64,000 bases of DNA, taken from contig JBFWOS010000001.1 in the NCBI GenBank assembly GCA_050250375.1, forward strand, positions 1,086,361 through 1,150,360. The letters are read 5' to 3'. Below the pieces are notes generated by a model that worked only from the letters and a program-made list of their open reading frames with translations, ran no database searches and was not told the DNA's origin. Position numbers and translations under genes: made by a program. This document shows, one piece after another, positions 4,475-29,575 of the stretch (position 1 is the stretch's first letter; every line of letters starts with the position of its first letter). This DNA comes from Candidatus Omnitrophota bacterium (GTDB lineage: Bacteria > Omnitrophota > Gorgyraeia > Zapsychrales > Zapsychraceae).

Positions 4475-5674
4475 TTATTTCATAAAAACCGAATCGTAGA
4501 CCTGTTCGGGTGAAATATCTTTTAAGCACAAATTATCCCGGCACGCCGAGTTGCGATGGTTAAAAACGGACAGACAAGGAGAACACGGGATTCCTGAATA
4601 AAATATTGTAATACGTTCACCGAGCGGCGCAAAGATCTTGGGAGTTTCCGGCCCAAAAAGGACAAATTGCCTGACTTTTGTCAATGCCGCCAGATGCGCC
4701 ATCCCGGAATCGTTCACAACCAAGGCTTTTGACACCGACATGAGGGCCAATAATTCCTGCAATGTTGTCTGCCCCATCAGATTAATGCACCTTTGGGGAT
4801 GATTTTGTGTTTGGGTGATCTGTTTTGCGCGTTCCGCCTTATCTTGCTGCCCGACAATCAACACATAGGTGTTATCGTGCGAAAGGATCTTTGTAACCAG
4901 CCGGGTAAAATACTCTAAAGGCCACTCCCTCAAAGGGATACGCCCTTCTCCCGGACATATCAGATAAATCTCCGCGGTTGCGTCAACCCCCAGGCCATTC
5001 AATTTTTTGTACAGAGATTTTTCCTGCTCTTTCGTATGTTGAAAAGAAACCAGATCAAAGCGGTTATCCTCTTTGAGAATTTCAGGCGACAACTTTTCGT
5101 TCTTTTCGACTGCCGTTCCCATCAGCAAATACATTTCACTGACATGGAGATGCGGATTGTATTGAATCTTATGTGTCAGCAGATCTCCGCGGTAAACCCC
5201 TTCAATTGTATACCGATGAAAGCCGACCCGTTTAAAAGCACCGCTCAGATAAGAAAGAATGGCTGTAAACCTGGAAAAAAATTCTAAATCAATCACGACA
5301 TCAAATTTTTCTTTACGTATCTTCCATAATAAGACAAATACACCTTTTACAAAAGCGGCGGGTGAACTTTCATCAATGGTCCACACATGGACTGGAATGG
5401 ATGGAACGAACACCTCAAATAGTTCCCGGTTACTTTTAAATGTTAAATAATGCAGTTCTGCTTGCGGATATTTTGTGTTCAACTTTTTAAGTAGGGGATA
5501 AGATAAAATGATCGCTCCGAGTTCCGATGGCTTGATGAACAAGATCTTAGACGGATCCTTTAGATCGCGGGAATCCGGAAAAAACAGACTCAATATCTTA
5601 TGCCATAACGTCAATATAAAACAAACGGGAATACCGATCAAATAATCCACCCGTTTCATAAATGTAAATCCCAT
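4475..5674 (-). CDS. Glycosyltransferase family 9 (heptosyltransferase-like)
   Basis: GT9 architecture. C-terminal VVNDSGMAHLAAL matches the conserved (D/N)SGxMHLAAA heptosyltransferase motif. There is an extra Cys-rich C-terminal tail. Confidence 0.7.
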   Translation of the reverse strand: MGFTFMKRVDYLIGIPVCFILTLWHKILSLFFPDSRDLKDPSKILFIKPSELGAIILSYPLLKKLNTKYPQAELHYLTFKSNRELFEVFVPSIPVHVWTIDESSPAAFVKGVFVLLWKIRKEKFDVVIDLEFFSRFTAILSYLSGAFKRVGFHRYTIEGVYRGDLLTHKIQYNPHLHVSEMYLLMGTAVEKNEKLSPEILKEDNRFDLVSFQHTKEQEKSLYKKLNGLGVDATAEIYLICPGEGRIPLREWPLEYFTRLVTKILSHDNTYVLIVGQQDKAERAKQITQTQNHPQRCINLMGQTTLQELLALMSVSKALVVNDSGMAHLAALTKVRQFVLFGPETPKIFAPLGERITIFYSGIPCSPCLSVFNHRNSACRDNLCLKDISPEQVYDSVFMK

Positions 5675-5681
5675 AACGCCT

Positions 5682-7058
5682 CTATTCCTTAAAAAAACTT
5701 TGGGTGATCACGTCCGCTATGTTTCCTGCAATCAGTTTAATGCCGTCGGTTGATAAATGGCCGAAATCTCCGGCAAAATTGTCTACAAAATATTGTTCAT
5801 ACGGCTTCTGACTCAGGGCGTCTTTGAAAATCTTCTCATTGTCCACAAACACAACATTTCTATCCTTACCTAACATTTTAACCAACGGATCTAATTTTCG
5901 CATGGGGTATTGGACACTGACCAACTTGATCCCCCGGCTCAATACAATTTCCTTAATCTGCCTGTAATTATCAACCGTTAACGGAGATAAATATTGGGCA
6001 TCCAGATCAGCGGCTTTAATAAACTTCTCTTCAGCCTCCTTGACTTTCCCTTGAATCAAGTAATAACTCGCCCACATCTTGCTAAAAATATAACTGTCAG
6101 GAAATTTCTCATCAGCCTTTTGTAAGACCTGCTCAAGCTTATCATATTCTTTCTGTTTAAAATAAATCTGAGCCAGCTTTTCATATGCTTCGTCCGAGTC
6201 AGGAATGTTCTGTATCATGGCTAAAACCGTTTCTTCCGCCAAGGAATATTTCATCGCGTAAAAATACCGCATGCTTAACAGACTATACGCTTCTTCATTC
6301 TTTGGATCAAGCTCTATGGCTCTTTTTAAATAGCTGACAGCCAAATCCATTTCCGCATAATACGAATAAATCCCCCCAAGGTTGGAATAAATCGGTGAAT
6401 AATCCGGATCAATCTTCATTGCTTTCTTTAATACCAATTCGGCCTCGTCAAATTCCAATCTATCCATATAATCATAGACCTGTTCCATCAATTTTGTCAT
6501 ACGAGGATCCTCATGAGACAAAACGTAATCCTCTTCCTTTTCAGAATTCCTGGATTGAGCATGTAGGCGAATATGATTCAACAACCGATATACCTTCAAC
6601 CGTTTCACGGCCAAAATAAACCAATTATCTTTATCATTTCCAAGCACTTCTTCCGTAACGTCGTTTCTTCCGTCATTAATTCCAATCATGGTGATAACCA
6701 TGTCCGGGGCGTATTTGCTCAGATTCTCTTTTAAATTAGAAAGGATAATACCGCTGGTTACACCCAGAATACCTTCATTAATGACCCGGAATTTGATTCC
6801 TAAATTTTTTTGATTTAATATTTTTTCCAGCTGATAGGGATACGAATGTTCCAGGGTTCCAGAAAACGTTGTCGATTCGCCGATACATAATATCCGGTAA
6901 GCTCCGGTTTCTTTCAAAGCCTGATGATTTTTATAAGATTGATAATATTTAAATACAAAGCCAGACAGTCGCATTCCGGTTTCGACAAAAATAACGGTCA
7001 TAATGAATCCAACCGCGATTAGAATAATTTTCTGCTTACCCGTTGTCTTGTCTTTCAT
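5682..7058 (-). CDS. TM-anchored SGNH/GDSL hydrolase with inserted TPR-repeat domain (paralog 1 of 4)
   Basis: N-terminal TM helix. Block I is ILCIGESTTFSG (catalytic Ser), block III is MIGINDG. A ~200-aa TPR region follows (repeated AEEAY...LG...Y pattern). Block V is FAGDFGHLS (DxxH). Confidence 0.7.
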   Translation of the reverse strand: MKDKTTGKQKIILIAVGFIMTVIFVETGMRLSGFVFKYYQSYKNHQALKETGAYRILCIGESTTFSGTLEHSYPYQLEKILNQKNLGIKFRVINEGILGVTSGIILSNLKENLSKYAPDMVITMIGINDGRNDVTEEVLGNDKDNWFILAVKRLKVYRLLNHIRLHAQSRNSEKEEDYVLSHEDPRMTKLMEQVYDYMDRLEFDEAELVLKKAMKIDPDYSPIYSNLGGIYSYYAEMDLAVSYLKRAIELDPKNEEAYSLLSMRYFYAMKYSLAEETVLAMIQNIPDSDEAYEKLAQIYFKQKEYDKLEQVLQKADEKFPDSYIFSKMWASYYLIQGKVKEAEEKFIKAADLDAQYLSPLTVDNYRQIKEIVLSRGIKLVSVQYPMRKLDPLVKMLGKDRNVVFVDNEKIFKDALSQKPYEQYFVDNFAGDFGHLSTDGIKLIAGNIADVITQSFFKE

Positions 7059-7068
7059 GAACTTTCTG

Positions 7069-7770
7069 TCATTTCTTCCTGAAGATTAATTGAATAAAAT
7101 CAGCCATCGCTGTTCCCACCACTTTAATATTCGCCCCCGTTGGTACTCCTCCTTCACGGACAAAATGCTCAATCGGCACTTCTTTAATCCTGGCTTTTTT
7201 AACACGGGCATTAATAAACACATGTGTATAAAACGCTCCGGCGTGCGAGTCAATCCCTTCCGTTTCTAAGAACTGTTTATGGAACAATTTAAACCCGCAA
7301 TTGATATCTTTAGACTTAATCCCGAAGGCCGCTCCAACGCAAAAGGTATATAATTTCCCTAACATAATCCGGTGGACCGGATCGACCCGCTTTGAACGGT
7401 AACCGGCTATAATGTCATAGTCTCTGGTATAATTGAGCATCGGATCGATGGAGTTAATCTTAATCTGGCCGTCAGAATCCATAAGCAGAATCCATTCGTG
7501 CCTGGATCGCTCAATCCCCGAAATTAACGCCTTTCCATACCCTTTATTTACCGGAAGAGTGACCACCGTAACATGGTTATAAGATTTCCCCAAATCTTTT
7601 AAGATATCAGGTGAGCGGTCAGTACTGCCATCGTCTACCAGGATTATTTCATACCCGGTAATATTCTTGTGGGAATGAAGATGATTGTATACTTCTTCAA
7701 CGGTCTTTCGGATATTGGATTCTTCATTATAAACCGGAAGAATGACAGATAGGGTCACTTGATCGCTCAT
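7069..7770 (-). CDS. Glycosyltransferase family 2, polyprenol-phosphate sugar synthase-like (DPM1/ArnC-like)
   Basis: LSVILPVYNEESNI ... EIILVDDGSTDRS (DxD-type GT-A fold). 233 aa, soluble. 4-nt overlap with the downstream radical SAM gene. Confidence 0.75.
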   Translation of the reverse strand: MSDQVTLSVILPVYNEESNIRKTVEEVYNHLHSHKNITGYEIILVDDGSTDRSPDILKDLGKSYNHVTVVTLPVNKGYGKALISGIERSRHEWILLMDSDGQIKINSIDPMLNYTRDYDIIAGYRSKRVDPVHRIMLGKLYTFCVGAAFGIKSKDINCGFKLFHKQFLETEGIDSHAGAFYTHVFINARVKKARIKEVPIEHFVREGGVPTGANIKVVGTAMADFIQLIFRKK

Positions 7771-9065
7771 ATCAACGTAATTAGACGCCCGACAAATAAC
7801 TTGAAACTTCGTATGAGCGTGAGCATGTTTGAACTGAGCAAATAGGCAGGCCTCAGATAGTACTTTAAATAAGTTTTACGGATATGCCGGTCGATGTATT
7901 TGTTAAAATTGATGTCAGGCATATAAACATTGCTTTTAAGATAAGGGTATACTTTATGAAATGATACAAAATTTGTGTTTAGTTCCTTGGCGAATTGAAA
8001 GGTTTCATTCCGGTCACTGTCCGATTCTTCCTTCAATCCGAACATATAAAAAGCCAGGGTCTTGATACCGGCCTGTTTGCACATCCTGACCCCTTCTTTG
8101 ATCTTCTCCGGAGAAATATGTTTATTTGTCAGATCCAGGTATTTCTTTGTGCCGCTTTCAACGCCAACATGGATCAATTGACAGCCGGCCGCTTTCATCT
8201 TCTTTAATATTTCCGGATCTACCGAATCAGCCCGGGTCTGGCAGCACCATTTGAAATCGTACTTCTTTTCGATGAGAAAATCACACATCCTTGAAACCTG
8301 CGCCTTATAATGTAGAAATTCAAGATCCATAAAATAAGCTGTTTTGACCCCGTGCTCCTCAACAGCAACCTGAATCTCTTTACAAATCTGTTCGCTGGTT
8401 TTGACCCGCAGTTTCGGTTCGTACATGATCTTGTTGCAGAATTTGCAGCCAAAATTACAGCCGCGGCCCAATTCGAACAGGACAAAATCTTTTCCGAGGA
8501 TTTCATAAAAGTATTTCCTGATATCCAGCAGATGAAACGCCGGAACGGGCAGATCGGTCAACTCAAAATTTCCCCGGTCCGGATTAGATTTGAAATGACC
8601 GTTTTCCCGATAACTGATGCCGGTGATTTGGGAAAGTTCCTGATCCTGACAGATATCATCCACAATGTATTCAGGCCCCCCGCGGATCACGGCCATAGCC
8701 CCGGTATTTTCTAATACCGTCACAGGGTCAACCGTCCCATGATAACCCATGATATAAAAATTATCCGTGTGTTCTTTAATTACTTTTACCGTTTCATAAA
8801 AAGCCGTCATATTAATATTGGGACATTGCCAGCGGTCAAGCGATGAGGATGTAATAAATATTTTATCGTAACCCATTAAATGGGTTTTTAATTTATGAGG
8901 TTTGATTCGCAAAGCATGCGCGTCGAGGATGCGGACAAAATGCCCTCTTTGCTCCAGGATCGCGGCACAATTAGCCAGGCACAGAGGCGGCCAGATACGG
9001 TTATACGTATGCTCTCCCTTTCCATAAGGGTACGGCCAGTAAGGTTTAATCAATAATATTTTCAT
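7767..9065 (-). CDS. B12-binding domain radical SAM protein
   Basis: N-terminal cobalamin-binding-like domain, then FELGRGCNFGCKFCNK (CxxxCxxC). Confidence 0.8.
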   Translation of the reverse strand: MKILLIKPYWPYPYGKGEHTYNRIWPPLCLANCAAILEQRGHFVRILDAHALRIKPHKLKTHLMGYDKIFITSSSLDRWQCPNINMTAFYETVKVIKEHTDNFYIMGYHGTVDPVTVLENTGAMAVIRGGPEYIVDDICQDQELSQITGISYRENGHFKSNPDRGNFELTDLPVPAFHLLDIRKYFYEILGKDFVLFELGRGCNFGCKFCNKIMYEPKLRVKTSEQICKEIQVAVEEHGVKTAYFMDLEFLHYKAQVSRMCDFLIEKKYDFKWCCQTRADSVDPEILKKMKAAGCQLIHVGVESGTKKYLDLTNKHISPEKIKEGVRMCKQAGIKTLAFYMFGLKEESDSDRNETFQFAKELNTNFVSFHKVYPYLKSNVYMPDINFNKYIDRHIRKTYLKYYLRPAYLLSSNMLTLIRSFKLFVGRLITLI

Positions 9066-9068
9066 AGT

Positions 9069-10286
9069 CTAAAAAAACTGTATGATTTTTCTTAACGTTT
9101 CAATAAACAACCGAACTTCTTCTTCCGTATTATACGCATAGAGGGATACTCTCAAACTCGGTGTCAGCCGGTGTCTTTTATACCCCGCGTGACAGCAGTG
9201 CACGCCGCTGCGGGTCATGATGTTTTCCGTCTGGTCCAGAATAATGGACAATTCACCTGAATCCATTCCTTCAACATAAAAATTGATAATCCCGGACCGT
9301 AAATCAGGATCCTGCGGTCCGATTATCCGGACTTTTGGCCAGCTTTTAATCGTGTCGGTCATCAGCCGGTTGAGCATGGATACATGCGCTCTGATTTCTT
9401 TCAGGCCTGTCTTCGTCAAATATTCGATGGCCGCCGTAACGCCTGACGCCCCCGCGTAATTCTGCAGACCAGCTTCAAACCGGTCGGGGACTTTCGATAA
9501 AACAAAAGAATTGGCGCTAACATCATCAACGGTTTCTCCTCCGATATACAACGGCTCCAGATTATCCAGATGTTTCTTCTTAGCATAAAGACATCCCATT
9601 CCGCTGGGGCCAAGCATCTTATGAAACGAAAAAGCGAAAAAGTCAGCATCAAGTTTTTGTACATCAATTGAATGATGGGCGATACTCTGCGCGCCGTCAA
9701 CCAAAACCAATGCGCCGTGTTCATGGGACAACCGGATTATATCCTCAATCGGAAACGTGTACCCCGTAATATGGCTCGTGTGCACGATGCTGACCAATTT
9801 AGCCCCTTCTTTTAAAAGAGCAACAAACCTTTCTTGATCGAATTTCAAATCCTCGGTCAGGCCAAAAATTCTTAAAACGGTCTCTTTCTTTCTTCCAATC
9901 ATCTGCCAGGGTAAAAAATTCGAATTGTGTTCCAGGCTGCTTGTCAGAACCACTTCACCCTTCAAAAAATTTATGCCGTTCGCGACAAGATTAATGGATT
10001 CCGTCGCATTCTTGGTGAAAACGATTTCATCCGCGCTCTTGGCGTTAATAAATCTCTGAACAGACTTCTTGGCCTGTTCATAGGCGGACGTTGTTTTCAG
10101 TCCGAATTTATGAACCGACCGTTTATGACAGCTGGGATGAACCATATAATACTCGTTCATGGCCTCCACCACCTGTCTCGGTCGTAACGTCACACAGGCA
10201 TTATCAAAATAAACCGGCTTTTTCCCTTTACTCACGCTTTCTAACGAAGGGAAATCTTTTCTCAATTGATTGCAATCAAAACCCAT
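9069..10286 (-). CDS. Cysteine desulfurase (class V aminotransferase, SufS/CsdA-like)
   Basis: PLP lysine motif SFHKMLGPSGMG. Active-site Cys region RSGVHCCHAG. Overall SufS-like length of 405 aa. Confidence 0.8.
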   Translation of the reverse strand: MGFDCNQLRKDFPSLESVSKGKKPVYFDNACVTLRPRQVVEAMNEYYMVHPSCHKRSVHKFGLKTTSAYEQAKKSVQRFINAKSADEIVFTKNATESINLVANGINFLKGEVVLTSSLEHNSNFLPWQMIGRKKETVLRIFGLTEDLKFDQERFVALLKEGAKLVSIVHTSHITGYTFPIEDIIRLSHEHGALVLVDGAQSIAHHSIDVQKLDADFFAFSFHKMLGPSGMGCLYAKKKHLDNLEPLYIGGETVDDVSANSFVLSKVPDRFEAGLQNYAGASGVTAAIEYLTKTGLKEIRAHVSMLNRLMTDTIKSWPKVRIIGPQDPDLRSGIINFYVEGMDSGELSIILDQTENIMTRSGVHCCHAGYKRHRLTPSLRVSLYAYNTEEEVRLFIETLRKIIQFF

Positions 10287-10290
10287 GATC

Positions 10291-10656
10291 TTACTTAAAC
10301 CATAATATGACCGGAAAAATTACGCTAATCCAGATCATCAAAAATATTGTTAGATTGAAATTTCTGTATATCATCCCGGAGAATTTCGGAGAAACGGAAA
10401 AAAACCTCCCGGCGATCTTGCACCGGTATAAAGGAATAAACGGCTTCTTATGAATAAGGTTCAGATTCGCCCGGATAACGACCATAAGAAAATTTTTCGT
10501 CCGTCTGGCCGTTGGAACGACAAAACTGAATAAATAAAAAAAGGGCAGCACAACAGCCGACGCAACCAGCATCGGCACAGACAGTGTCAGCAAACCGAAC
10601 AAATTCGGCCCCTTATCTTCCATACTATAACCGCAACAACCTGTTTCACCAATCAT
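10291..10656 (-). CDS. Hypothetical small membrane protein (two predicted TM segments)
   Basis: ORF fills the gap between the cysteine desulfurase and the PP-loop gene. Hydrophobic stretches LFGLLTLSVPMLVASAVVLPFFYLF and LTIFLMIWISVIFPVILWF. No recognisable family. Confidence 0.3.
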   Translation of the reverse strand: MIGETGCCGYSMEDKGPNLFGLLTLSVPMLVASAVVLPFFYLFSFVVPTARRTKNFLMVVIRANLNLIHKKPFIPLYRCKIAGRFFSVSPKFSGMIYRNFNLTIFLMIWISVIFPVILWFK

Positions 10657-10660
10657 AAGA

Positions 10661-11515
10661 TTACCTTTCGATCAGTTTATACAATCTGCTTTCCGGGCCT
10701 TTTTCCACAAACTGATCCAGCTCCCGGGTAAAAGTCGCGATCTTGTCCTTATAAAAGACAAGAGTCGCTTGCTGATATTCATCATAAGTATGATCCGCCA
10801 GGTACAACCATTTTACAAAAATATTAAAAAGAATAAACTGAAAACAGCGCGGCTGCATTTTACGGTCCAACGCGGTGCCTTTGACATTTTCAGACGGCAT
10901 CAGACCGAGTTCATAAAGCTTCCGCCCGGTCGTTTGTGTCTGCGTCGCTGTATTACAAGAAGTCTTGTTGTCCTGCGTAAAAAATCGCTCCAATCTGAGA
11001 CGGTCAGTAAATTCCAGATCCTGCGGGCCATCATATTTAAAGACCGGATTGGTGTAAGTAATCCCAAAACGGGCGTACATGTCCCCGTATTCATTAATGA
11101 TTGTAGCCATCTGGTCGGGAAAAAGGTGCATCCCCTGATTCGCGCCGTCACAGACATTGGGTATTTGGTTCTCGAGGCAAAAGATCGCGGTACGCACATG
11201 CATGGCCAGCTTGCATAATCCGCAAATAGTCAGCAGAAAAAAGCCATGTTTTTTAATATTGCTCAAATATCGTTCGTAAAACACATACCGTGTCAGTTTC
11301 TCTACCTTGATGATATGAAACTCAAATTTATTCTGACCGTATTTATCCTGCAGTTTTTTGACATTAATCATCGGATTGGTGACCGAAGAAAACGCAAACC
11401 GGTCGTAGGTGATCAAATGGATCTTGTCGTATTTTTCGGCCATTAACGCGGCCGTTAATGTCGAATCTGTCCCTCCGGAAAATAATGTCGCTGTTTCATT
11501 TCGTCTCATAAACAA
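10661..11515 (-). CDS. PP-loop ATP pyrophosphatase superfamily protein with CxxC...C cluster (TtcA/TtuA-like thiolation or LarE/QueC-like)
   Basis: N-terminal SGGTDST (SGGxDS PP-loop) within the first 20 aa. CGLC at ~100 and an isolated Cys at ~123. 284 aa. Confidence 0.65.
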   Translation of the reverse strand: MFMRRNETATLFSGGTDSTLTAALMAEKYDKIHLITYDRFAFSSVTNPMINVKKLQDKYGQNKFEFHIIKVEKLTRYVFYERYLSNIKKHGFFLLTICGLCKLAMHVRTAIFCLENQIPNVCDGANQGMHLFPDQMATIINEYGDMYARFGITYTNPVFKYDGPQDLEFTDRLRLERFFTQDNKTSCNTATQTQTTGRKLYELGLMPSENVKGTALDRKMQPRCFQFILFNIFVKWLYLADHTYDEYQQATLVFYKDKIATFTRELDQFVEKGPESRLYKLIER

Positions 11516-11696
11516 CCTGCTCCTGTTTTGCTTTCTCCAGCTCTTTCAGAATGAACTTCAAAATAACGATATACGAAAGGTAAATGAACTGGGTGATCCA
11601 CCCCAGAATTTCAATGTAGACACACCTCATCTTCCAGGGCATGATCAGTCCAAAACCGCATAAGAGTATCGCCAAAATTTTCCTGATCGTCTTCAT
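11496..11696 (-). CDS. Hypothetical small membrane protein
   Basis: 66-aa ORF with one long hydrophobic stretch, wedged between the PP-loop gene and a radical SAM gene. Overlaps the PP-loop start by 20 nt. Confidence 0.3.
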   Translation of the reverse strand: MKTIRKILAILLCGFGLIMPWKMRCVYIEILGWITQFIYLSYIVILKFILKELEKAKQEQVVYETK

Positions 11697-21245: not shown

Positions 21246-21485
21246 CGTGCCTCCGGGTTTGATAGGTAGTATAAAAAAACTGACTTTACGTGCCTGTATG
21301 TCCAGTAGACTATTCTATAATTATGATTTTTATAATAGTTATATAAAGTATACCCTTCGAGGTATTCAAAAACAAGCAAAAAATCTCTGGAACTTTTGTC
21401 TGTTTTTATAAAATTGGAAACCTTATTTGAATCTTAACCGCATGCCAATAAATGAGATTTGACTTGTTTGGTCCTGATTGATTAA
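21246..21485 (-). promoter_or_regulatory. AT-rich intergenic region upstream of the 21245->4475 gene string (candidate operon promoter)
   Basis: 240-nt gap, the only sizeable one between 29575 and 4475. Downstream genes have 0-15 nt gaps or overlaps. No boxes verified. Confidence 0.3.
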
Positions 21486-22886: not shown

Positions 22887-24207
22887 CCTCGATTAACTCG
22901 GAATTTTCAAGATACCGGGAGGTTTTATTTGTTTGCGGGTCAACCTTTCTTAATTGCGATATCTCTTTGACTATTCCAACTCCCCTGGCAAACCACGCTG
23001 TGCTAGTCGTTATATCGTACGTGCCGTCAGACTCAACCCATTTGTCATAATACTCGACTCTTATGCAACCCATAAATCTTCCGGCCTTGACCGTTACATC
23101 TTCTACGCCGGTAATTTTAAACTCGATTCTTCCTTCCGCAATGACACTTCCTTGTGAAAAGTCATCTGGTCTTGAATATTTCGAAAAAAATGCTTTCAAA
23201 ACATTAAATGACAAATCGGGAAGAATGTTACTCGGAGGGTCATAGATCTCCGAATTCCCTTCGTCAAATTCTTTATATTTTCGAATACCTGTCTCGTCAT
23301 AAGCAAAACACTTATATCCTTCTTGCGAAAAATAGACTTTCCACGTATCCTGCCCTCCAATATTTTCCCTGCCCCGGATTTGAAACTTGCGGATAAAACT
23401 ATTTTGATTCGAATCATCCACCCGGTAAACCCACCTATTCCCTTCATATAGAGGGTAATACTCGCTGGCTTTAAATTCACGTCCGGCATATTCAGAAGTC
23501 TCCTGGTCGTGTTCTTGCACGGAAACCGCAACTAGAGCTCCTGCCAAAACGAAAATCAGGATTGGAATGATTTTTAGCCAATTCATCTTTCTTATTTTTC
23601 GCATGAACAATATTCTTCTTAACGACCGGAGAATAATCAAACCATTAATAGATAAGAAAACCGGGAAATGATTTAGTTCATGATCATAATAGGTTATCCA
23701 GAATCCAAAAAGCAAACAGTTTCCGCCGATCGTATGCAGCAGGGACCACTTTTTTATTCCAAGCTCTTTTTGGGATCTGTCGTTTGACGTCAGCGCCATC
23801 CCCCCGGTAAACACGATGGCAATAACTCCCAGGATGTACTCCGGAATCGTCGTGTCTTTAATAAAAAACGGCGTGTCATAAACCATCTTTAAAAATAATC
23901 CGAAGAAATGGATAAAGAAAAATACGGAAAAAGCGATTCCAAAATATTTGCGTTGACGCAGTATCCAGTGTGTAAATTGATTAGGAAGAAAATAGCAGGC
24001 TGTTGAAGCCCCGAAGCTCAGCATAAACATTATTAACATGCTCTCTCCGGTTATTTTTAAAAACTTGTAGATTGTGTCAAGATTGTATTCGCCGAAAAAA
24101 ATAATGCCCGCGCTAAGCAAGGAAACAAAAATCGGCATAAAAATACTCATCCGGACTAATTTTGTATCGGACCAAACCTTCTTTTCCTGCAGACCATTCT
24201 TTGTCAT
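22861..24207 (-). CDS. Membrane protein: N-terminal ~6-TM domain with paired His (possible ferric-reductase/MsrQ-like heme b domain) plus C-terminal extracytoplasmic domain
   Basis: Helices contain FTHWILRQRKYF...FFIHFFG and LLHTIGGNCLLF...YYDHEL (His pairs spaced as in di-heme b proteins). After the last TM there is a ~220-aa beta-rich soluble domain. Confidence 0.3.
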   Translation of the reverse strand: MTKNGLQEKKVWSDTKLVRMSIFMPIFVSLLSAGIIFFGEYNLDTIYKFLKITGESMLIMFMLSFGASTACYFLPNQFTHWILRQRKYFGIAFSVFFFIHFFGLFLKMVYDTPFFIKDTTIPEYILGVIAIVFTGGMALTSNDRSQKELGIKKWSLLHTIGGNCLLFGFWITYYDHELNHFPVFLSINGLIILRSLRRILFMRKIRKMNWLKIIPILIFVLAGALVAVSVQEHDQETSEYAGREFKASEYYPLYEGNRWVYRVDDSNQNSFIRKFQIRGRENIGGQDTWKVYFSQEGYKCFAYDETGIRKYKEFDEGNSEIYDPPSNILPDLSFNVLKAFFSKYSRPDDFSQGSVIAEGRIEFKITGVEDVTVKAGRFMGCIRVEYYDKWVESDGTYDITTSTAWFARGVGIVKEISQLRKVDPQTNKTSRYLENSELIEVVIRGGRE

Positions 24208-24209
24208 TT

Positions 24210-25961
24210 TTACCAGCCGCTGGTGGGATTATAAAAAGAAAAATCGTTGAGCAGCCGCATATCCTGCCAAAAACTGTATATCAAAAACAATCCCACAATT
24301 ATTTTCAGGATTCTTTTAAACATTAACGGTTGCTGTTCAACATAAATCATCATGACAATCAACAACGGTGGAACTATCTGGGTCAAATGGTTCGTCTGTT
24401 TCCAGTCTACAATTGAAAAGAGGATTGCTCCGGAAAAAATCCAGGCGGCAAACAAAGAAACATATCGACCGGGAAATTTTATCAGACAAAAAATAAGAGT
24501 AAATACGGTTATGGGAAGATACGGGAATTCAAATTTAAATTCCAGCCATAGCCGTAAGAACCCGGGATAATCTTCAGCAAACAGGGTATTATGATGGAAG
24601 AGCCGATCAAACAGATGGACTTTCACATGCGATAGAATAAACGCATGATAATCAATCACCATCCCGTATACCCAGAACAGAACCGACCCCAGGGCAAATC
24701 CGATCGGTATAACTGATCGTTCCTTTAAACTTTTCAAAAACCCTTTCTCTTTCCTCTCTTTACGCGATTGGTACACTTGAATCAAGAACAGGGGCAAGAC
24801 CAAAACAACAATCTTCTGGTTGATCAAACCGGACAGGACTCCGGGAATATATTTCAGAAACTTCAGAGACCATTTTGAATTTTCCCATATCTCCGGACGG
24901 AAATATTGATAGGCCAGCACGACCATTAAACAATTCGTAAACGCCACATGCTCTGATAGACAGGATCTGACAAAGATGGCCGGGGTAAAAATATAGGCAT
25001 ATCCCCCGACAATTCCCAACAACCTGGACTGGGTTAAACCGGTGATCAACTTATACAAAATAAAGAAAACCAGAAGGCTCGCAAAAATATTGGATGCTCT
25101 CGCCGGGAATACATTCGGCCGGGAGAAAAAATGATTTTGGTCTTGCCAATTGATATATTCGATCAATCCCGTTTTTGTATAGGAATAATCAACCAGGTCA
25201 TTCCCGGACAGCTTCTTCAGCGTAAAATATTGCCCGTTAAAATTTCTTAAGTGAACTGTTTCACCCATAAATTCTGCCGTTGCTTCTTCCCCGGGAGACA
25301 ACTTAAGAACCTTTTCAGTCAGCACGGCTGAATCATAAAAATATTTATAATCATCCGTTTTATCCAGAAGAAATATGCTAAACGCGTTAAATAAATTTGT
25401 CATCGGCGGATGGGCAAAATAAAACGCCGACCCGATAAAATCATCACTAGTCAAATACGGTTTTAACTCATGAATCAAGCCATAGGCTGTCCCCTGATGC
25501 TCACCATCGAGGTCCAGTTTTTCCGGGATCGTCTTCATTCCCACAAAAATGCAGCTAAATATACAAACCAACGATAACCATAGGATGAGCGTTTCCTTGT
25601 AATCATAGCGAAACGTCTGAAAAACTTCCGCAGGGCGAGTTAGGATGATGCCGAGATTAACGATCATGCCCGTCAGCAGAAGAAAATGAACCGGCTTAGG
25701 GTTAATTCCGGCCGCCAAAAATCCGATTAGAATTATTGTCAGCACAGAGAAAGAAAAGACAAAAATAAAAAACACCAGAAAAACGCTGTCTTTGACATGT
25801 TTCTTTATCAGTCCGATCCAGGCCAGTCCGGGGACAATGTATATCACGGCGGTAACAACCAACGCTGATAAGAAATCACCCGCCTCTGTGTATAAAATCA
25901 AAATATTACTAAACAGGAACAAGTTACATAACAAGGCAATATGCCGGTTTCTGATAAACAT
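24210..25961 (-). CDS. Polytopic integral membrane protein (>=12 TM), possible GT-C-type glycosyltransferase or polymerase/ligase
   Basis: 583 aa, hydrophobic throughout, no soluble domain recognisable. Sits in the glycan locus. Confidence 0.35.
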   Translation of the reverse strand: MFIRNRHIALLCNLFLFSNILILYTEAGDFLSALVVTAVIYIVPGLAWIGLIKKHVKDSVFLVFFIFVFSFSVLTIILIGFLAAGINPKPVHFLLLTGMIVNLGIILTRPAEVFQTFRYDYKETLILWLSLVCIFSCIFVGMKTIPEKLDLDGEHQGTAYGLIHELKPYLTSDDFIGSAFYFAHPPMTNLFNAFSIFLLDKTDDYKYFYDSAVLTEKVLKLSPGEEATAEFMGETVHLRNFNGQYFTLKKLSGNDLVDYSYTKTGLIEYINWQDQNHFFSRPNVFPARASNIFASLLVFFILYKLITGLTQSRLLGIVGGYAYIFTPAIFVRSCLSEHVAFTNCLMVVLAYQYFRPEIWENSKWSLKFLKYIPGVLSGLINQKIVVLVLPLFLIQVYQSRKERKEKGFLKSLKERSVIPIGFALGSVLFWVYGMVIDYHAFILSHVKVHLFDRLFHHNTLFAEDYPGFLRLWLEFKFEFPYLPITVFTLIFCLIKFPGRYVSLFAAWIFSGAILFSIVDWKQTNHLTQIVPPLLIVMMIYVEQQPLMFKRILKIIVGLFLIYSFWQDMRLLNDFSFYNPTSGW

Positions 25962-25965
25962 AAGC

Positions 25966-26742
25966 TTAATAAATTTTCCTGATAATAAGGTTAGTCAAGC
26001 CGGGTGACAACCGGTTTAACAAATATAGCGGTATACACTTTTTTCCGATGACGACCATTTTTTTGTTCTTTTCAATGGCCGTCAGAATGGCCTGTGCAAC
26101 GGTGTCGGCACTGATCCCTGTTCTTTTATGTTGATACGGTTCATCACGGTACAAAACGTTTGGTTCGAATTCCGTTTCAACTTTCCCAGGACAGACCAAA
26201 ATAACCCGGATATTATCTTTCCTTGCATCTTCAGCCAGCGATTCGGTCAATCCGTTGACAGCAAACTTGGAAGACGAATACAATCCGCAATCATAAAATC
26301 CTTTGATTCCCGCCACCGAAGAAACATTCAGGATAACTCCTCCTCTCCGTTTCTTCATATATGGATAAACGGCACGGGTACAATACAATACTCCGTACAA
26401 ATTCGTAGCCAGCATGTCCCGATACAAATCCATCGGGCCCGTGATGATCGACCCCTTAAATCCCACACCGGCATTATTAATCAAGACATCCACTTGTCCG
26501 TATTTCCGGATCACTTGTTCCACCAAGTGCTGAACCTGATCTTCCTTCCCGACATCAGCCGGGATGACCATCGTATCACCACCGGTTAATTTACCTGCGA
26601 CAGCGTCAAGTTTATCTTTTCGGCGGGAAACAAGTACAACCCTGGCGCCTTTCTGGGATAACAACCCTGCACAGCTTTGTCCGATCCCCGAGGATGCACC
26701 TGTCACAATGACCACCTTGTTAGTAAAATCATATTTTTTCAT
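25966..26742 (-). CDS. Short-chain dehydrogenase/reductase (SDR) family oxidoreductase
   Basis: VVIVTGASSGIGQS (TGxxxGxG NAD(P)-binding motif). 258 aa. 4-nt overlap with the upstream DegT gene. Confidence 0.85.
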   Translation of the reverse strand: MKKYDFTNKVVIVTGASSGIGQSCAGLLSQKGARVVLVSRRKDKLDAVAGKLTGGDTMVIPADVGKEDQVQHLVEQVIRKYGQVDVLINNAGVGFKGSIITGPMDLYRDMLATNLYGVLYCTRAVYPYMKKRRGGVILNVSSVAGIKGFYDCGLYSSSKFAVNGLTESLAEDARKDNIRVILVCPGKVETEFEPNVLYRDEPYQHKRTGISADTVAQAILTAIEKNKKMVVIGKKCIPLYLLNRLSPGLTNLIIRKIY

Positions 26743-28055
26743 GAAAACTCCATCGGCTTGTTCATCGCCGGATAACCAAAATATTCTCTTATCACATTTG
26801 CCTGATAATAAATATCTTCATCCGATAAAAACTGTGAACACGGCAGCTCAATGATCTTTTCATCAACCAACTTCATTTGCGGATAACTTTCCTCATCATT
26901 TAAGAGCTCCGCGCAGTTACGCATGGACGATTCTTTCGAATCAATTCCTCTTAACAACAAATGCGTTCGGATCGCTTTTTTAAGAGGAGTAATTATATTA
27001 AACGACAACGCGATATGCTCCCTGTTTTCAACAATCGGTATCAGACCAATCTCTTTAACATCTTTCAGAAGATTTTCTAAAAGTTTTGCTTTAACGACGC
27101 GCCGGTCATTTGTTTCATCCAGCCTGGCCAGTTGGGAAAGCCCAAGTTGGGCTTGAAAGACTGTATACGGACTGATTTTGCTTTTGGAACGCGCATCCGC
27201 CGGGGTATATTTATCGCCTGTCAAGCGTTCAATCGGATCAAACTGAAACAAGTTAGAAAGAACGAGCCAGGGGTAGACAAAGAGCGAAAATAACAGCCGG
27301 TTCGTCAATGTTATCTGAAGTAATGATTTTAGATAATACCGGTAGCTTTTCAGCCGTTTATAGTCTCCGTGTACTCCATCCAGAATCTCTTTAAACTTAA
27401 AGAATCGCTTATTGTCTTTGCAGACGATCATTCCCCCGCCGAGTGTAACCAGACATTTTCCCGTTCCAAAACTGAACATTCCGAAATCCCCGAAACTTCC
27501 AATTTTCCGCCCCCTTTTTTCAGCCCCGCAGGCATGAGCTGCATCTTCAATAAGGATCAAATCATGCTTCATACAAATCGTTTGGATTTCCTGGATTTCA
27601 GCCGCACGGCCGAATAAATGGGTAACAACAATACCCCGGGTTTTAGGAGTGATTTTTTTCTCGATCATTCTGGAATCTATATTCAGAGTCTCCGAGTCGA
27701 TGTCTACAAATACCGGCTTCAACCCCTTACTCTTAAGCATGATCGGCATCACATGATAATTATAGGCCGCGAGAATGATCTCATCTCCCTGACACAGTCC
27801 GAGAGAATCGAGTAAACACGAAAAACCCTCCCGGACAGACGAAACGGCAGATGCATGCGGTACGCCGATATACTCTGCAAACCTTGTCTCGAATTCCAGA
27901 ATCTTGTCCGTTTTGTTCCTTGCTAAAAAAGATCCGCCCACGGATTTCAGATCTGCTTTGGAATAGGACACCAACCGTCTTGGAATGATTTTCAATTTTA
28001 CCCTTGTGTTTGTTTGATTAAATAATTTTTGATTCGATTTGGAAAACTCATTCAA
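26739..28055 (-). CDS. DegT/DnrJ/EryC1/StrS family PLP-dependent sugar aminotransferase (or dehydratase) with C-terminal extension
   Basis: LIEDAAHACGAEKRGRKIGSFGDFGMFSFGTGKCLVTLGGGMIV matches the family signature (EDAAqA.GA...G..G...FSF...K....GEGG) with the PLP lysine. Confidence 0.75.
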   Translation of the reverse strand: MNEFSKSNQKLFNQTNTRVKLKIIPRRLVSYSKADLKSVGGSFLARNKTDKILEFETRFAEYIGVPHASAVSSVREGFSCLLDSLGLCQGDEIILAAYNYHVMPIMLKSKGLKPVFVDIDSETLNIDSRMIEKKITPKTRGIVVTHLFGRAAEIQEIQTICMKHDLILIEDAAHACGAEKRGRKIGSFGDFGMFSFGTGKCLVTLGGGMIVCKDNKRFFKFKEILDGVHGDYKRLKSYRYYLKSLLQITLTNRLLFSLFVYPWLVLSNLFQFDPIERLTGDKYTPADARSKSKISPYTVFQAQLGLSQLARLDETNDRRVVKAKLLENLLKDVKEIGLIPIVENREHIALSFNIITPLKKAIRTHLLLRGIDSKESSMRNCAELLNDEESYPQMKLVDEKIIELPCSQFLSDEDIYYQANVIREYFGYPAMNKPMEFS

Positions 28056-28066
28056 AACTTTTTAAG

Positions 28067-29575
28067 TTATGATCTTACGGGCATCGGACTGACAACACCG
28101 ACAGAATTTTCCATCTTTTCATTCTCTCCATGAATTAAAAACATAATTCCGTCTTTGACAAGCTTTAAACTCCCCGGAGAATTACTCAGATAATATGGCA
28201 GATAGTTATAGAGATGTGAAAACACAAAAGAAGGCCTGAATAATATTTTTTTATAGAATACCCGTTGGATCTTTTTGAGAGCGGATAAATCTATTTGGCT
28301 CAAATTAACAATCGGCTTCAAGTAATGATGCGGAGATTGTAATTCTGAACTTTTGTCTGAATACCGTTTATAATCCACCGATCCGGGATAAAGTGTGAAA
28401 AAATGGACTTTTACCAGATTCGGCTGGATTTCCTGGCATAAGTCTATACTTTGCTGGATATCATGCTCTGATTCCGTTGGGCTCCCGACGATAAACATCG
28501 CGCACGAAGCGATTCCTGCCCGTCTTACATTATCAAACGCTTCCTTGACCTTTTGCCTCCAACCTGCCTGAAAAGAAGCTTTATGCAGCACATTCACGAT
28601 TTTTTGGGAACCCGATTCAATCCCGAACAAGAGCAGTTCGCAACCGGCATTTTTCATCACGGTTAATAATTCGGGAGGAACCTCATCAACGCGCGCATGA
28701 CAGGCCCATTTGATTTTAAGATTACGCCTGACAATCTCTTCACAAATTTTTGTAACATGATCTTTATTAAGTACAAAATCGTCGTCCTCAAAAGAAACCA
28801 CGTTAACGCCTATCCGGGTCAGCCGTTCTATCTCTTCAACCACTTTTTCCGGGCTGCGGGTTCTCAGCTTACGCCCGTAACTCTTTCTTACTGTCGGTGA
28901 ACAAAATGTACAGGCATGCGGACAGCCTCGTGATGTGGAGATGTATCCCGACACCATTTTTTGTGAAACCCGCATGGGATAAATATATGGGTACTTCGTC
29001 AATTCATCTTTACTCCAATCCAGGACCGGCAATTCGTCAATGTCATCTAACTGAATCAATTCATTACTTTTTATCTGGTTATAGTATGCTTTGACTGACT
29101 CAAAATCTTCCGGTGAATTTAAACGGTTAATCAGCGCATTTAATTCGATTTCAAACTCACCCCGGATAATCACGTCAAATAATTCCGGCAGGCTCAAATA
29201 AAACCGGTGTTTTTCAGAGACATCCGACCCGACCGCAACAATCGGCAAAGCCTTCTTTTTCTTAATTTTTCGGCACAATTCGATGGCGGCCTCAGATGAC
29301 GGTGAACCAATGGATACAACTATTAGATCAATTGCCTGCTGTTGAATTTGGTCCATAAGTCCATCAAAAGTCGGAGGATCAACCCAATAATCCAAAAGAG
29401 TAATATTATATTGACCTTGGTCCTGTAAAATCTTCTGAGCATATTTTAAAGGCAGGCAAGGCGCATAATGAACCGGATGCTTAATCTTTTTTCGATGGGA
29501 GTTCCCTGCCCGTATAAGAAGAATATTTTGATATTTTAGGACGGTGTTATTTATTGGTTTCATGTTCGAAATCAT
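28067..29575 (-). CDS. B12-binding domain radical SAM protein
   Basis: STSRGCPHACTFCSPTVRKSYG. N-terminal B12-binding-like domain. Confidence 0.8.
   Translation of the reverse strand: MISNMKPINNTVLKYQNILLIRAGNSHRKKIKHPVHYAPCLPLKYAQKILQDQGQYNITLLDYWVDPPTFDGLMDQIQQQAIDLIVVSIGSPSSEAAIELCRKIKKKKALPIVAVGSDVSEKHRFYLSLPELFDVIIRGEFEIELNALINRLNSPEDFESVKAYYNQIKSNELIQLDDIDELPVLDWSKDELTKYPYIYPMRVSQKMVSGYISTSRGCPHACTFCSPTVRKSYGRKLRTRSPEKVVEEIERLTRIGVNVVSFEDDDFVLNKDHVTKICEEIVRRNLKIKWACHARVDEVPPELLTVMKNAGCELLLFGIESGSQKIVNVLHKASFQAGWRQKVKEAFDNVRRAGIASCAMFIVGSPTESEHDIQQSIDLCQEIQPNLVKVHFFTLYPGSVDYKRYSDKSSELQSPHHYLKPIVNLSQIDLSALKKIQRVFYKKILFRPSFVFSHLYNYLPYYLSNSPGSLKLVKDGIMFLIHGENEKMENSVGVVSPMPVRS

Follow-up and report, generated by a model that had tools for sequence, protein, structure and literature searches.

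A 64,000-nucleotide stretch of DNA from a Candidatus Omnitrophota bacterium (contig JBFWOS010000001.1, positions 1,086,361 to 1,150,360; referred to below as the window) carries 22 co-directional genes on its minus strand at 4475-29575, seven of which encode radical S-adenosylmethionine (radical SAM) enzymes. Our preferred reading, which we hold tentatively, is that this block is the core of an Omnitrophota cell-envelope decoration supercluster, in which a Dlt-like group-transfer module that operates independently of an MBOAT enzyme is set in a polyprenyl-phosphate-sugar locus. Surface glycoconjugate clusters are a known type of locus; the gene cassette contained in this one is not previously described, and no mention of DUF5989 or DUF7411, two of its protein families, was found in the searchable literature. 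Of the whole block, only the cassette is shared between phyla. It occurs in Omnitrophota, Elusimicrobiota and Bdellovibrionota and consists of an SGNH protein, a DUF5989 microprotein, a second SGNH protein, a radical SAM enzyme of the B12-binding type (B12-radical SAM), the membrane microprotein TM66 and the PP-loop protein DUF7411, with or without the small protein hyp121 and a SufS-type cysteine desulfurase (gene names as in Table 1). An earlier note on this DNA had recorded the cysteine desulfurase and the PP-loop protein, both of which are present, and gave the pair no interpretation, yet the pair belongs to the cross-phylum cassette. The genes shared across phyla point to sulfur chemistry and to a mechanism resembling either Dlt or the maturation of peptides that are made on ribosomes and modified after translation (RiPPs), and not to simple sugar tailoring.

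The supercluster is stable within the Omnitrophota lineage and is no chance juxtaposition. The entire gene order is retained in relatives at 47-89% protein identity, including the upstream GT-C glycosyltransferase genes and the downstream PilZ-PilZ-GH94 genes; since 7 of 22 genes encode radical SAM enzymes and the whole order is conserved, the pattern exceeds chance. The gene content and co-directionality given for 4475-29575 in the earlier note were borne out, all 20 open reading frames (ORFs) of at least 100 residues with family matches in this interval being on the minus strand. The block does not end at 29575, however, and five further minus-strand genes for polytopic membrane proteins, four of them with GT-C family matches in Pfam, extend the unit upstream. 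The co-directional supercluster thus spans at least 34 kb (∼4475-38284) and is followed by a 935-nt gap. The tight packing described previously holds only when two conserved microprotein genes that had been missed, DUF5989 and TM66, are counted in what had appeared to be gaps; with the 240-nt gap at 21246-21485 excepted, spacings are then at most 28 nt, not the 0-15 nt first stated. That 240-nt interval is, as noted, the one true non-coding gap of the block, and nothing conserved was found inside it.

Distribution and proposed sulfur chemistry of the cassette

The TM66-DUF7411-hyp121-SufS core is strictly syntenic, at 34-52% identity, in Omnitrophota, Bdellovibrionota (Bacteriovorax and Halobacteriovorax) and Elusimicrobiota. 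Close to it there is a gene of the SGNH3 type, DUF5989, a gene orthologous to B12rSAM2, or a carbamoyltransferase gene together with SxtJ. For DUF7411, 316 relatives were found, among them proteins of Elusimicrobiota, of the cultured Bacteriovorax stolpii and of an assembly of Halobacteriovorax marinus, and a metagenome scan gave 62 further DUF7411 loci. Partner frequencies were calculated for 17 loci that were non-redundant and had 6 kb or more of flanking sequence in both directions, drawn from these 62 and four genome contexts. DUF7411 was accompanied by TM66 in 94% of them, by any SGNH gene in 82% (SGNH3 type, 76%), by DUF5989 in 71%, by any B12-radical SAM gene in 71%, by a B12rSAM2 ortholog (36-55% identity) in 53% and by a SPASM radical SAM gene in 41%. 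SufS (35%) and hyp121 (29%) were less frequent, as were GT-C (18%), DegT (18%) and GT2 (12%) genes. The usual operon, SGNH3, DUF5989, B12rSAM2, TM66, DUF7411 (hyp121, SufS) and SGNH2, corresponds to window positions 16220 down to 9069. Other neighbours of the cassette encode enzymes of envelope glycans, for example Wzy_C, PMT_2, CE4 and methyltransferases, and 6 of about 25 loci also have carbamoyltransferase/SxtJ. In Bdellovibrionota the gene after SufS encodes a radical SAM enzyme that is not orthologous to B12rSAM1. No hidden MBOAT or AT3 protein was found among 164 unmatched neighbour ORFs from about 25 loci.

Some individual loci have additional neighbours. In Bacteriovorax stolpii (CP030035, locus L040) a 147-residue Peptidase_S74 protein (9336-9779) is encoded directly upstream of TM66-DUF7411; it is 35% identical over 72 residues to an S74 protein of the window and gives a second co-occurrence of S74 and cassette, in a different phylum. 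In the same locus, PqqD and a short SPASM radical SAM enzyme are encoded side by side. Both L040 (913-4001) and a further Bdellovibrionota locus, L041 (17414-20514), encode a fused methylmalonyl-CoA-mutase-like B12 enzyme (708-711 residues) and MeaB near the cassette, and in an Elusimicrobiota locus (L042, 13705-20831) three consecutive WD40/beta-propeller proteins of ∼1000 residues each are encoded directly downstream of the cassette SGNH gene. Lineages that carry the cassette or SGNH proteins with tetratricopeptide repeats (SGNH-TPR) are mostly very small-celled, host-attached or predatory, and include Omnitrophota, Bdellovibrionota (Bacteriovorax, Halobacteriovorax), Elusimicrobiota and some metagenome-assembled genomes labelled as candidate phyla radiation (Gottesmanbacteria, Parcubacteria, Daviesbacteria); a sampling or binning bias is possible.

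DUF7411 contains an invariant SGGxDS motif (S13, G14, G15, D17 and S18) together with three invariant cysteines and one that is near-invariant. The best Foldseek match of its AlphaFold2 model (pLDDT 86) is YcfA from Erwinia amylovora (E 1e-10, TM 0.77), followed by QueC, NcsA, TtuA, LarE and ThiI, and YcfA is also its one meaningful sequence match in the PDB (phmmer E 1e-7). YcfA adenylates a carbonyl group and replaces oxygen with sulfur, acting with the class-V pyridoxal phosphate (PLP) enzyme YcfC (PMC12494993). The SufS-like protein encoded two genes downstream of DUF7411 scores 417 bits against 475 for TIGR01979 and matches SufS structures in the PDB at E 1e-85 to 1e-88. Since it keeps both the PLP-binding lysine (HK) and the persulfide-forming cysteine (HC) in the alignment, the canonical scheme in which an AANH enzyme is paired with a cysteine desulfurase (ThiI, MnmA and TtuA with IscS) applies. 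With its SGGxDS motif, AANH fold and dedicated PLP partner, DUF7411 can be classed as a putative thiolation-type AANH enzyme, for which oxygen-to-sulfur exchange is predicted.

The YcfA-YcfC pair of 6-thioguanine biosynthesis shares with the window pair the PP-loop fold, the SGGxDS motif and the adjacent class-V PLP enzyme. However, sequence identity to YcfA is 17-19%, and DUF7411 has an extra C-terminal helical region of ∼60 residues and conserved cysteines. YcfC is a C-S lyase that lacks the desulfurase cysteine, whereas the window enzyme keeps it and would deliver sulfur via a persulfide. Unlike YcfA, the window system would be membrane-associated via TM66 and hyp121, and GTP is an unlikely substrate. 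TM66 shows the motif C..LPWRLR..GW..Q..Y..Y, with invariant P20, R24, G32 and W33, plus Q36, Y39 and Y42; a relationship to SxtJ, of which it might have been a miniature form, was ruled out (hhalign probability 0.4%, no Pfam family). Orthologs of hyp121 occur at 34-37% identity in three phyla, and its N-terminal Cys-Cys-Gly sequence makes a role as membrane-tethered persulfide acceptor plausible.

The DUF5989 tail and its SGNH partners

The DUF5989 protein of the window has a single transmembrane segment in N-in orientation and a periplasmic C-terminal tail ending AIYALF-COOH, a sequence of the FxYxxF type. DUF5989 proteins have a mean of 8.0 lysine and arginine residues before the membrane segment and 0.0 after it, and the short C-terminal tail is therefore extracytoplasmic. 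The tyrosine at position −4 is invariant in all 41 unique orthologs from the fetched loci. A search of 1.84 billion representatives yielded 346 family members (representatives at 50% identity), almost all of 47-113 residues, in which the match always reaches the last residue. Tyrosine is at −4 in 146 of 149 representatives and phenylalanine at −1 in 140, the strict FxYxxF-COOH sequence is present in 103, and the terminal heptapeptide of the family reads P-F-I-Y-T-L-F; the N-terminal part is variable and merely basic. None of 150 representatives is fused to a larger membrane enzyme. The residue at −6 is alanine in DUF7411-linked proteins (LPAIYALF, 30 of 41), whereas it is phenylalanine in the family at large (PFIYTLF, 106 of 149); it may determine specificity towards the transferred group or a partner enzyme.

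An FxYxxF sequence at an extracellular C terminus has been described as the 'acyl shuttle' motif of DltX and of the MBOAT proteins PatA, AlgI and others, in which the tyrosine is acylated and passes its group to the catalytic serine of a membrane-anchored SGNH protein, DltD or PatB (PMC12148441). Pathways other than Dlt do so without a separate shuttle microprotein, and extracytoplasmic acylation of envelope polymers is described as requiring an MBOAT or AT3 membrane enzyme (PMC12148441). Systems that lack an MBOAT are not described in the acyl-shuttle literature searched.

The DUF5989 microprotein is likewise genetically coupled to SGNH proteins. In DUF7411-anchored loci, which were chosen for neither gene, the distance from DUF5989 to an SGNH gene is at most 400 nt in 18 of 23 distinct cases and at most 3 kb in 21. 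Alignment with relatives confirmed that the window encodes four split SGNH proteins with an inserted TPR domain, as had been proposed. Each has an N-terminal signal-anchor, and the insert lies between blocks III and V; the serine of block I, the glycine of block II, the asparagine of block III and the DxxH of block V are all kept, and the four proteins look catalytically competent. The anchor of SGNH-TPR proteins also contains a nearly invariant E..R..G motif (LLExGLRxxG), and these conserved charged residues in or next to the membrane segment suggest a specific intramembrane partner. Relatives of SGNH1 were found nearly exclusively in Omnitrophota metagenome-assembled genomes. At 38 genome loci found with SGNH1, SGNH-TPR genes form tandem arrays of up to five or six that often adjoin genes for B12-radical SAM and SPASM radical SAM enzymes, GT2, GT-C, SAM-dependent methyltransferases, a sulfatase and NodU-type carbamoyltransferases, and gene content differs between loci, a pattern typical of surface-polymer loci.

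The partner pattern is modular. DUF5989 and SGNH are constant, and the activator is either DUF7411/TM66 or a NodU carbamoyltransferase/SxtJ, sometimes fused. NodU/TobZ-type carbamoyltransferases act through carbamoyl-AMP, and both types of activator would form adenylates. The sxtI-J-K-L genes and similar sets of carbamoyltransferase, SxtJ, SxtK and GDSL lipase, many of them uncharacterised, have in common with the cassette a DUF5989 protein (SxtK presumably being one), an SGNH protein and an activator with a small membrane partner; the window differs from them in that its activator is DUF7411 with TM66 and not a NodU-type carbamoyltransferase with SxtJ. The saxitoxin cluster itself contains sxtI, the two short ORFs sxtJ and sxtK of unknown function, and the GDSL lipase gene sxtL (PMC2885083).

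The cassette has several features in common with the Dlt (DltA/C, the MBOAT DltB, DltX and DltD) and PatA/PatB systems: an FxYxxF-type extracytoplasmic C terminus with an invariant tyrosine, carried, as in Dlt, by a microprotein with one transmembrane segment, a genetically coupled, N-terminally anchored extracytoplasmic SGNH protein with an intact Ser/His/Asp triad and, as in Dlt, a cytoplasmic activator predicted to form adenylates. It differs in lacking a carrier protein and any conduit of the MBOAT or AT3 type, and in having as activator a PP-loop (AANH) protein instead of one of the DltA type. A B12-radical SAM enzyme and often a cysteine desulfurase are integrated into the system, its SGNH proteins have a TPR insert and keep the block II glycine, and DUF5989 shows no detectable sequence homology to DltX outside the motif.

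On this basis we propose, as a possibility still open to considerable doubt, that the cassette (SGNH3, DUF5989, SGNH2, B12rSAM2, TM66, DUF7411, hyp121 and SufS) is an MBOAT-independent analogue of Dlt and PatAB. DUF7411, held at the membrane by TM66, would adenylate a carbonyl or carboxyl group and, where SufS and hyp121 are present, would exchange its oxygen for sulfur via a persulfide relay. The B12-radical SAM enzyme would tailor the activated group, which would be carried on the invariant tyrosine of the periplasmic FxYxxF-type tail of DUF5989. The catalytic serine of the SGNH-TPR enzymes would then accept the group and place it on an envelope polymer. What the analysis establishes is the synteny and linkage, the gene content, and the motifs, folds and topology of the proteins. 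Within this model we infer the substrate, the identity of the transferred group, its route across the membrane and the roles of the other radical SAM enzymes; for the SGNH proteins we likewise infer transferase rather than esterase activity.

Several observations weigh against the shuttle model. No polytopic family recurs with the cassette in about 25 loci, and no MBOAT or AT3 match was found among the window ORFs scanned. The cassette thus offers no candidate catalyst for loading the periplasmic tyrosine from a cytoplasmic adenylate other than TM66, which is tiny and has no conserved histidine. Searched against all PDB chains, the DUF5989 profile does not detect DltX, and Pfam assigns DUF5989 alone, so the resemblance of the DUF5989 and DltX motifs may be convergent. 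SGNH3 retains the hydrolase-typical block II glycine, which PatB and OatA have replaced (PMC12148441), and its model (pLDDT 92) folds nearer to ordinary carbohydrate acetyl-esterases and the protease CgnD than to either PatB or OatA, a comparison that does not tell a transferase from an esterase. Only about a third of cassettes have SufS and hyp121, and the window yielded neither an acceptor polymer nor an initiating phosphoglycosyltransferase or flippase. Finally, the nearest solved relative of B12rSAM2 is QCMT, which acts on a protein, and that of DUF7411 makes thioamides; a model with a peptide substrate fits these affinities at least as well.

Glycan genes, radical SAM enzymes and alternative readings

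The cassette is embedded in genes for glycan synthesis. The GT9, GT2, SufS-like, PP-loop, SDR and DegT proteins named earlier were all matched in Pfam/NCBIfam scans. The GT2 protein has no transmembrane segment, and all NCBIfam equivalogs (best PgfS, ArnC and PpgS) are under cutoff. As in the GtrA/B/V, ArnC/ArnT, CsbB/YfhO, PgfS/PgfM and PpgS/Rv3779 systems, a GT2 protein resembling polyprenyl-phosphate-sugar synthases occurs with GT-C proteins (PMT_2/YfhO), and the DegT aminotransferase is an ArnB-like element in common with Arn. In contrast to these systems, one GT2 in the window would serve five GT-C-type paralogs, amid seven radical SAM enzymes and with the equivalog models under cutoff. 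Given the family matches and the established Gtr, Arn and CsbB-YfhO three-component systems, the locus probably encodes a polyprenyl-phosphate-sugar glycosylation system that decorates envelope acceptors. In the cytoplasm, DegT and SDR, perhaps with some of the radical SAM enzymes, would modify a sugar, which the soluble GT2 would then load onto polyprenyl phosphate; on the periplasmic face, the five GT-C-type membrane proteins would pass it on to acceptors of the envelope. The GT9 protein suggests an LPS-core-like glycolipid as one acceptor. No match to the small GtrA-type flippase was found in the window; hyp121 and both microproteins likewise gave none.

Homologous loci add Wzy_C, a CE4 deacetylase, carbamoyltransferases, methyltransferases, GT1, FdtA and extra GT2 and GT-C genes. 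These enzymes, together with GT9, GT2, DegT, SDR and the adjoining GT-Cs, support the view of the earlier note that this is a surface glycan locus matching no described pathway. The membrane protein mem583 has 18 homologs, almost only in Omnitrophota-type metagenome contigs, and has a motif reminiscent of GT-C proteins, of which it might be a sixth, but the hhalign probability for this is just 30%. A relative carries a 238-residue DUF3108-like gene at the position of the 448-residue protein, and L106 has a 542-residue gene at the position of the membrane protein with nine predicted transmembrane segments, whose N-terminal LWDDE loop motif suggests that it is also a GT-C protein.

The seven proteins identified as radical SAM enzymes all contain CxxxCxxC. 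Five of them had been called B12-binding; the start positions stand, but only three (11702, 17643 and 28067) score above threshold for the Pfam B12-binding domain, which is weak at 7767 (18.5 bits) and undetected at 16224, for which orthologs in relatives give a faint match. All five align from the N terminus to BchE/HpnJ-type models and, by alignment, have the class B radical SAM architecture of CxxxCxxC and an N-terminal B12-binding Rossmann domain. Their binding of cobalamin is uncertain; the AprD4 and ArsL types, which are relatives of class B enzymes, bind none (PMC12931638). The five are 24-36% identical to one another, B12rSAM5 being 36% identical to B12rSAM3. The core is the same as in QCMT, AprD4, HpnJ, BchE and PhpK/Sden_1168, yet none of the seven radical SAM proteins reaches the cutoff of any curated NCBIfam model, and their scores are 3-5 fold below. 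The best scores of the five class B proteins are 142-186 bits against cutoffs of 481-578, those for BchE being 142-164 bits against 481. HpnJ is the top NCBIfam match for three of the five (B12rSAM5, 159 against 578), and B12rSAM4 is matched best by the P-methyltransferase Sden_1168 (186 against 575) and, in the PDB, by AprD4 and then QCMT. ApyD (RiPP) models match all five at E 1e-30 to 1e-47, under cutoff, and a ladderane-lipid B12-radical SAM model gave weak matches.

These searches do not place the radical SAM enzymes in known non-glycan families, all being far under the BchE, HpnJ, HpnR and PhpK cutoffs. The heavy C-methylation that the earlier note had suggested on their account is not supported, however, as the best families and structures mix the non-methylating HpnJ, BchE and AprD4 with the protein C-methyltransferase QCMT. 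HpnJ and BchE carry out ring chemistry, AprD4 is a diol-dehydratase for an aminoglycoside sugar that works without cobalamin, and QCMT C-methylates a glutamine of methyl-coenzyme M reductase. Judged by these scores, the five class B proteins are orphan lineages whose chemistry is not revealed by homology. The two proteins described as radical SAM/SPASM paralogs are indeed paralogous (36% identity) but do not contain a full SPASM domain. SPASM1 and SPASM2 have 4 and 5 cysteines beyond residue 250, a twitch-like arrangement with room for one auxiliary cluster, and the full seven-cysteine SPASM motif for two auxiliary clusters is absent from both. AhbD is the best NCBIfam match of each (110-124 bits; SPASM2, 110 against 500). 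SPASM1 is matched best in the PDB by SkfB, CteB and BlsE, and also matches Tes (E 1e-8).

Plain multi-step glycan tailoring, the reading of the earlier note, is the strongest of the alternatives, although in our view unlikely. The substrates of the seven radical SAM enzymes would then be sugars linked to nucleotides or polyprenyl, which they would alter by C-methylation, epimerisation, deoxygenation or ring contraction; an amino or deoxy sugar would come from DegT and SDR, and the PP-loop protein and SufS would amidate or thiolate a uronic acid or another sugar; the SGNH-TPR proteins would be periplasmic O-acyl esterases or transferases and the microproteins mere membrane adaptors. The glycan enzyme set and its neighbours agree with this, as do the affinity of the SGNH3 fold to carbohydrate acetyl-esterases, the match of B12rSAM4 to the aminoglycoside enzyme AprD4, the three leading matches to HpnJ, which acts on a glucosamine head group, and the twitch-like single auxiliary cluster, which resembles that of the sugar-acting BtrN and BlsE (among the PDB matches). 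However, no radical SAM enzyme passes the threshold of any sugar-pathway family, and only 12-18% of loci have glycosyltransferase or DegT genes beside the cassette, which is therefore not bound to one sugar pathway. Tailoring also leaves unexplained both the SGNH-linked microprotein with its invariant terminal FxYxxF-type motif and the near-obligate pairing of TM66 with DUF7411.

A further reading is a RiPP-like peptide product, which we rate as rather improbable. DUF5989, and possibly TM66, would be a precursor anchored by a membrane tail. Its C-terminal sequence (P-[F/A]-I-Y-x-L-F) would be modified in the cytoplasm by C-methylation (B12-radical SAM), by thioamidation (PP-loop protein/SufS) or, in SxtJ-type loci, by carbamoylation, would flip to the periplasm on insertion and would be clipped by an SGNH-fold peptidase to release a small peptide or cofactor, which the glycosyltransferases may glycosylate as in mycofactocin. 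A precedent exists in the crocagin RiPP pathway, in which the SGNH-fold protease CgnD frees a C-terminal core peptide that contains Tyr; the carbamoyltransferase CgnI is also part of this pathway (PMC10070186). This precedent, together with the affinities to QCMT, a protein C-methyltransferase, and YcfA, a thioamide synthase, makes the peptide alternative credible. It requires no transmembrane catalyst and so removes the main gap of the shuttle model; seven radical SAM enzymes per locus are typical of RiPP and cofactor clusters; the ApyD matches and the Bacteriovorax PqqD gene with its SPASM radical SAM neighbour agree with it. The crocagin system differs in that CgnD is a soluble cytoplasmic protein lacking a TPR insert and a membrane anchor, that the precursor CgnA is no membrane protein, and that the pathway has neither radical SAM enzymes nor a PP-loop enzyme. 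Against the peptide reading, no PqqD or RRE domain was found in any window protein scanned (Pfam/NCBIfam), the presumed leader of DUF5989 lacks conservation beyond its basic character, and a search of the intergenic gaps for RiPP precursors found no conserved small ORFs other than the two membrane microproteins. Four to six SGNH paralogs per single DUF5989 fit peptidases poorly, the TPR inserts and the GT-C/GT9 context suggest polymer or protein acceptors, and the terminal hexapeptide is in exact C-terminal register with the acyl-shuttle motif.

Membrane-lipid modification, in which AhbD-like SPASM enzymes and B12-radical SAM enzymes would bridge, methylate or cyclise membrane-spanning lipids (Hbs-, Hgm- or Grs-like) while SGNH proteins remodel acyl chains, is very improbable: it finds some support in the AhbD, ladderane-lipid and Tes matches, Hbs being an AhbD homolog reported in Omnitrophota and Hgm a B12-radical SAM enzyme (10.1101/2023.10.20.563219), but the defining features of Hbs are an N-terminal COG4001 domain of ∼100 residues, a length of at least 400 residues, E of at most 1e-80 to Tg-Hbs and clustering with Tes or Mss, whereas the window proteins (361 and 385 residues) have a ∼55-residue extension with CxxxCxxC at residues 60 and 63, score only 110-124 bits against AhbD and are partnered by glycosyltransferases and sugar enzymes, with no Tes, Mss or other lipid-synthesis gene in the window, and the Hbs/Hgm identification was ruled out on length, the lack of a COG4001-size extension and the lack of Tes/Mss.

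Surroundings of the locus and its significance

The features of the locus are collected in Table 1. Its surroundings include MnmE, Era, PurH and a Mur ligase, and the locus is therefore chromosomal. Counts from promoter and terminator scans scarcely exceed those of shuffled controls; the one notable site, and the best promoter-like site of that strand, is at 39193-39165 in the 935-nt gap beyond 38284.

Table 1. Genes and other features of the supercluster and its flanks (positions in the window).
Feature	Position	Strand	Annotation
Two PilZ (c-di-GMP receptor) proteins and GH94-like protein	738-4231	-	Downstream neighbours; order kept in relative L107
GT9, heptosyltransferase-like	4475-5674	-	Glyco_transf_9 104.8 bits; heptosyltransferase II 120.5 vs 134.6
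SGNH1	5682-7058	-	Membrane-anchored; long TPR insert
GT2, soluble, 233 aa	7069-7770	-	Polyprenyl-phosphate-sugar-synthase-like (PgfS/ArnC/PpgS-like); Glycos_transf_2 107.9 bits
B12rSAM1	7767-9065	-	Class-B-type radical SAM; weak B12 domain
SufS-type cysteine desulfurase	9069-10286	-	Class V, type II; two genes downstream of DUF7411
hyp121	10291-10656	-	Two transmembrane segments; invariant C7, C8, G9, C79
DUF7411	10661-11515	-	PP-loop (AANH) ATP pyrophosphatase, YcfA-like
TM66	11496-11696	-	66-aa membrane microprotein; near-obligate upstream partner of DUF7411; no Pfam family
B12rSAM2	11702-13195	-	B12-binding radical SAM; travels with cassette; closest solved structure QCMT 9CCB, E 1e-13
SGNH2	13208-14671	-	Membrane-anchored; TPR insert; second cassette-linked type
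DUF5989	14696-14908	-	70-aa microprotein; Pfam 54.3 bits vs cutoff 27
SGNH3	14937-16220	-	Membrane-anchored, periplasmic; short TPR-like insert; SGNH type tightest linked to cassette
B12rSAM3	16224-17627	-	Class-B-type radical SAM; B12 domain undetected by Pfam
B12rSAM4	17643-19070	-	B12-binding radical SAM; B12-binding 61.6 bits
SPASM1	19067-20152	-	Radical SAM with twitch/partial SPASM; Radical_SAM 85 bits, SPASM 33.5 bits
SPASM2	20088-21245	-	Radical SAM with twitch/partial SPASM; Radical_SAM 83 bits, SPASM 20.3 bits (cutoff 21.5)
Non-coding gap	21246-21485		240 nt, AT-rich; possible internal promoter; weak promoter-like match 21347-21320
SGNH4	21486-22886	-	Membrane-anchored; TPR insert; 35% identical to SGNH1
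448-aa protein	22861-24207	-	Five N-terminal transmembrane segments; weak DUF3108-like C-terminal domain
mem583	24210-25961	-	583-aa polytopic membrane protein; no family match; invariant DxDxE...YFAHP
SDR	25966-26742	-	adh_short 194.6 bits
DegT/DnrJ/EryC1 sugar aminotransferase	26739-28055	-	Pfam 208 bits; PseC, LegC, ArnB, DesI models under cutoff
B12rSAM5	28067-29575	-	B12-binding-domain radical SAM; Radical_SAM 91.7 bits, B12-binding 33.2 bits
GT-C (PMT_2) with C-terminal TPR	29744-31636	-	PMT_2 92.4 bits and TPR families
Polytopic membrane protein	31633-33261	-	Nine predicted transmembrane segments; no Pfam/NCBIfam match; N-terminal LWDDE loop motif
GT-C (PMT_2)	33248-34906	-	PMT_2 32.7 bits
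YfhO-like GT-C membrane protein	34825-36630	-	YfhO 39 bits vs cutoff 28.5; seven predicted transmembrane segments
GT-C (PMT_2)	36608-38284	-	First gene after 935-nt gap; PMT_2 36.5 bits vs 26.1; weak mannosyltransferase and Agl23 matches
Three putative surface-fibre/adhesin genes	39220-46170	-	
c-di-GMP-I-GGC riboswitch	46221-46301	-	RF03167; 59.5 bits vs gathering 59, E 1.7e-11
Lysine-2,3-aminomutase-like radical SAM, then ATP-grasp enzyme	52947-55165	-	LAM_C; D-Ala-D-Ala-ligase type

At 3542-4231 the block ends with two PilZ genes; a third one is located at 62358-62828. Upstream of the GT-C genes, the three putative surface-fibre or adhesin genes encode a 393-residue protein with a Peptidase_S74 (endosialidase intramolecular chaperone) domain, a cysteine-rich protein of 1420 residues with Sushi-like repeats and raised GC content (0.49), and a 447-residue protein with a Flp/TadE-like N terminus (GQSIIEYALLI). 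The c-di-GMP-I-GGC riboswitch lies directly 5' of the S74-domain gene, which suggests that this surface-protein operon, just upstream of the GT-C/radical SAM block, is under c-di-GMP control. Its products are possible acceptors for the adjoining GT-C(TPR) glycosyltransferases. The aminomutase-like radical SAM enzyme and ATP-grasp enzyme encoded further upstream suggest a beta-lysine-containing product unrelated to the block.

Under the shuttle reading, the locus would represent a new route of surface decoration, possibly with sulfur-bearing groups; the RiPP-like reading would imply a new class of membrane-anchored precursor. The DUF5989 family is wired to SGNH proteins but to varied cytoplasmic chemistry: PP-loop proteins, cysteine desulfurases and B12-radical SAM enzymes, or carbamoyltransferases. 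A wider proposal, which we put forward with more doubt than confidence, is that the DUF5989 proteins make up a second, so far overlooked family of tyrosine shuttles of the DltX kind, which, with SGNH(-TPR) proteins, provides a general MBOAT-independent means for the export of activated groups to envelope polymers with interchangeable activators. If this is true, a NodU carbamoyltransferase with SxtJ would lead to periplasmic O-carbamoylation, DUF7411/TM66 and a B12-radical SAM enzyme (with or without SufS and hyp121) would provide a sulfur-containing or C-methylated acyl group, the product of the Omnitrophota locus would be a thio-modified surface glycoconjugate without known precedent, and the long unexplained sxtJ, sxtK and sxtL would gain a function. 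Under either reading four families of unknown function, DUF5989, DUF7411, TM66 and hyp121, gain testable hypotheses, and since the cultured Bacteriovorax stolpii, as well as an assembly of Halobacteriovorax marinus, contains the cassette, experiments are feasible. Surface chemistry is central to the biology of the small-celled, host-attached or predatory lineages that carry these genes.

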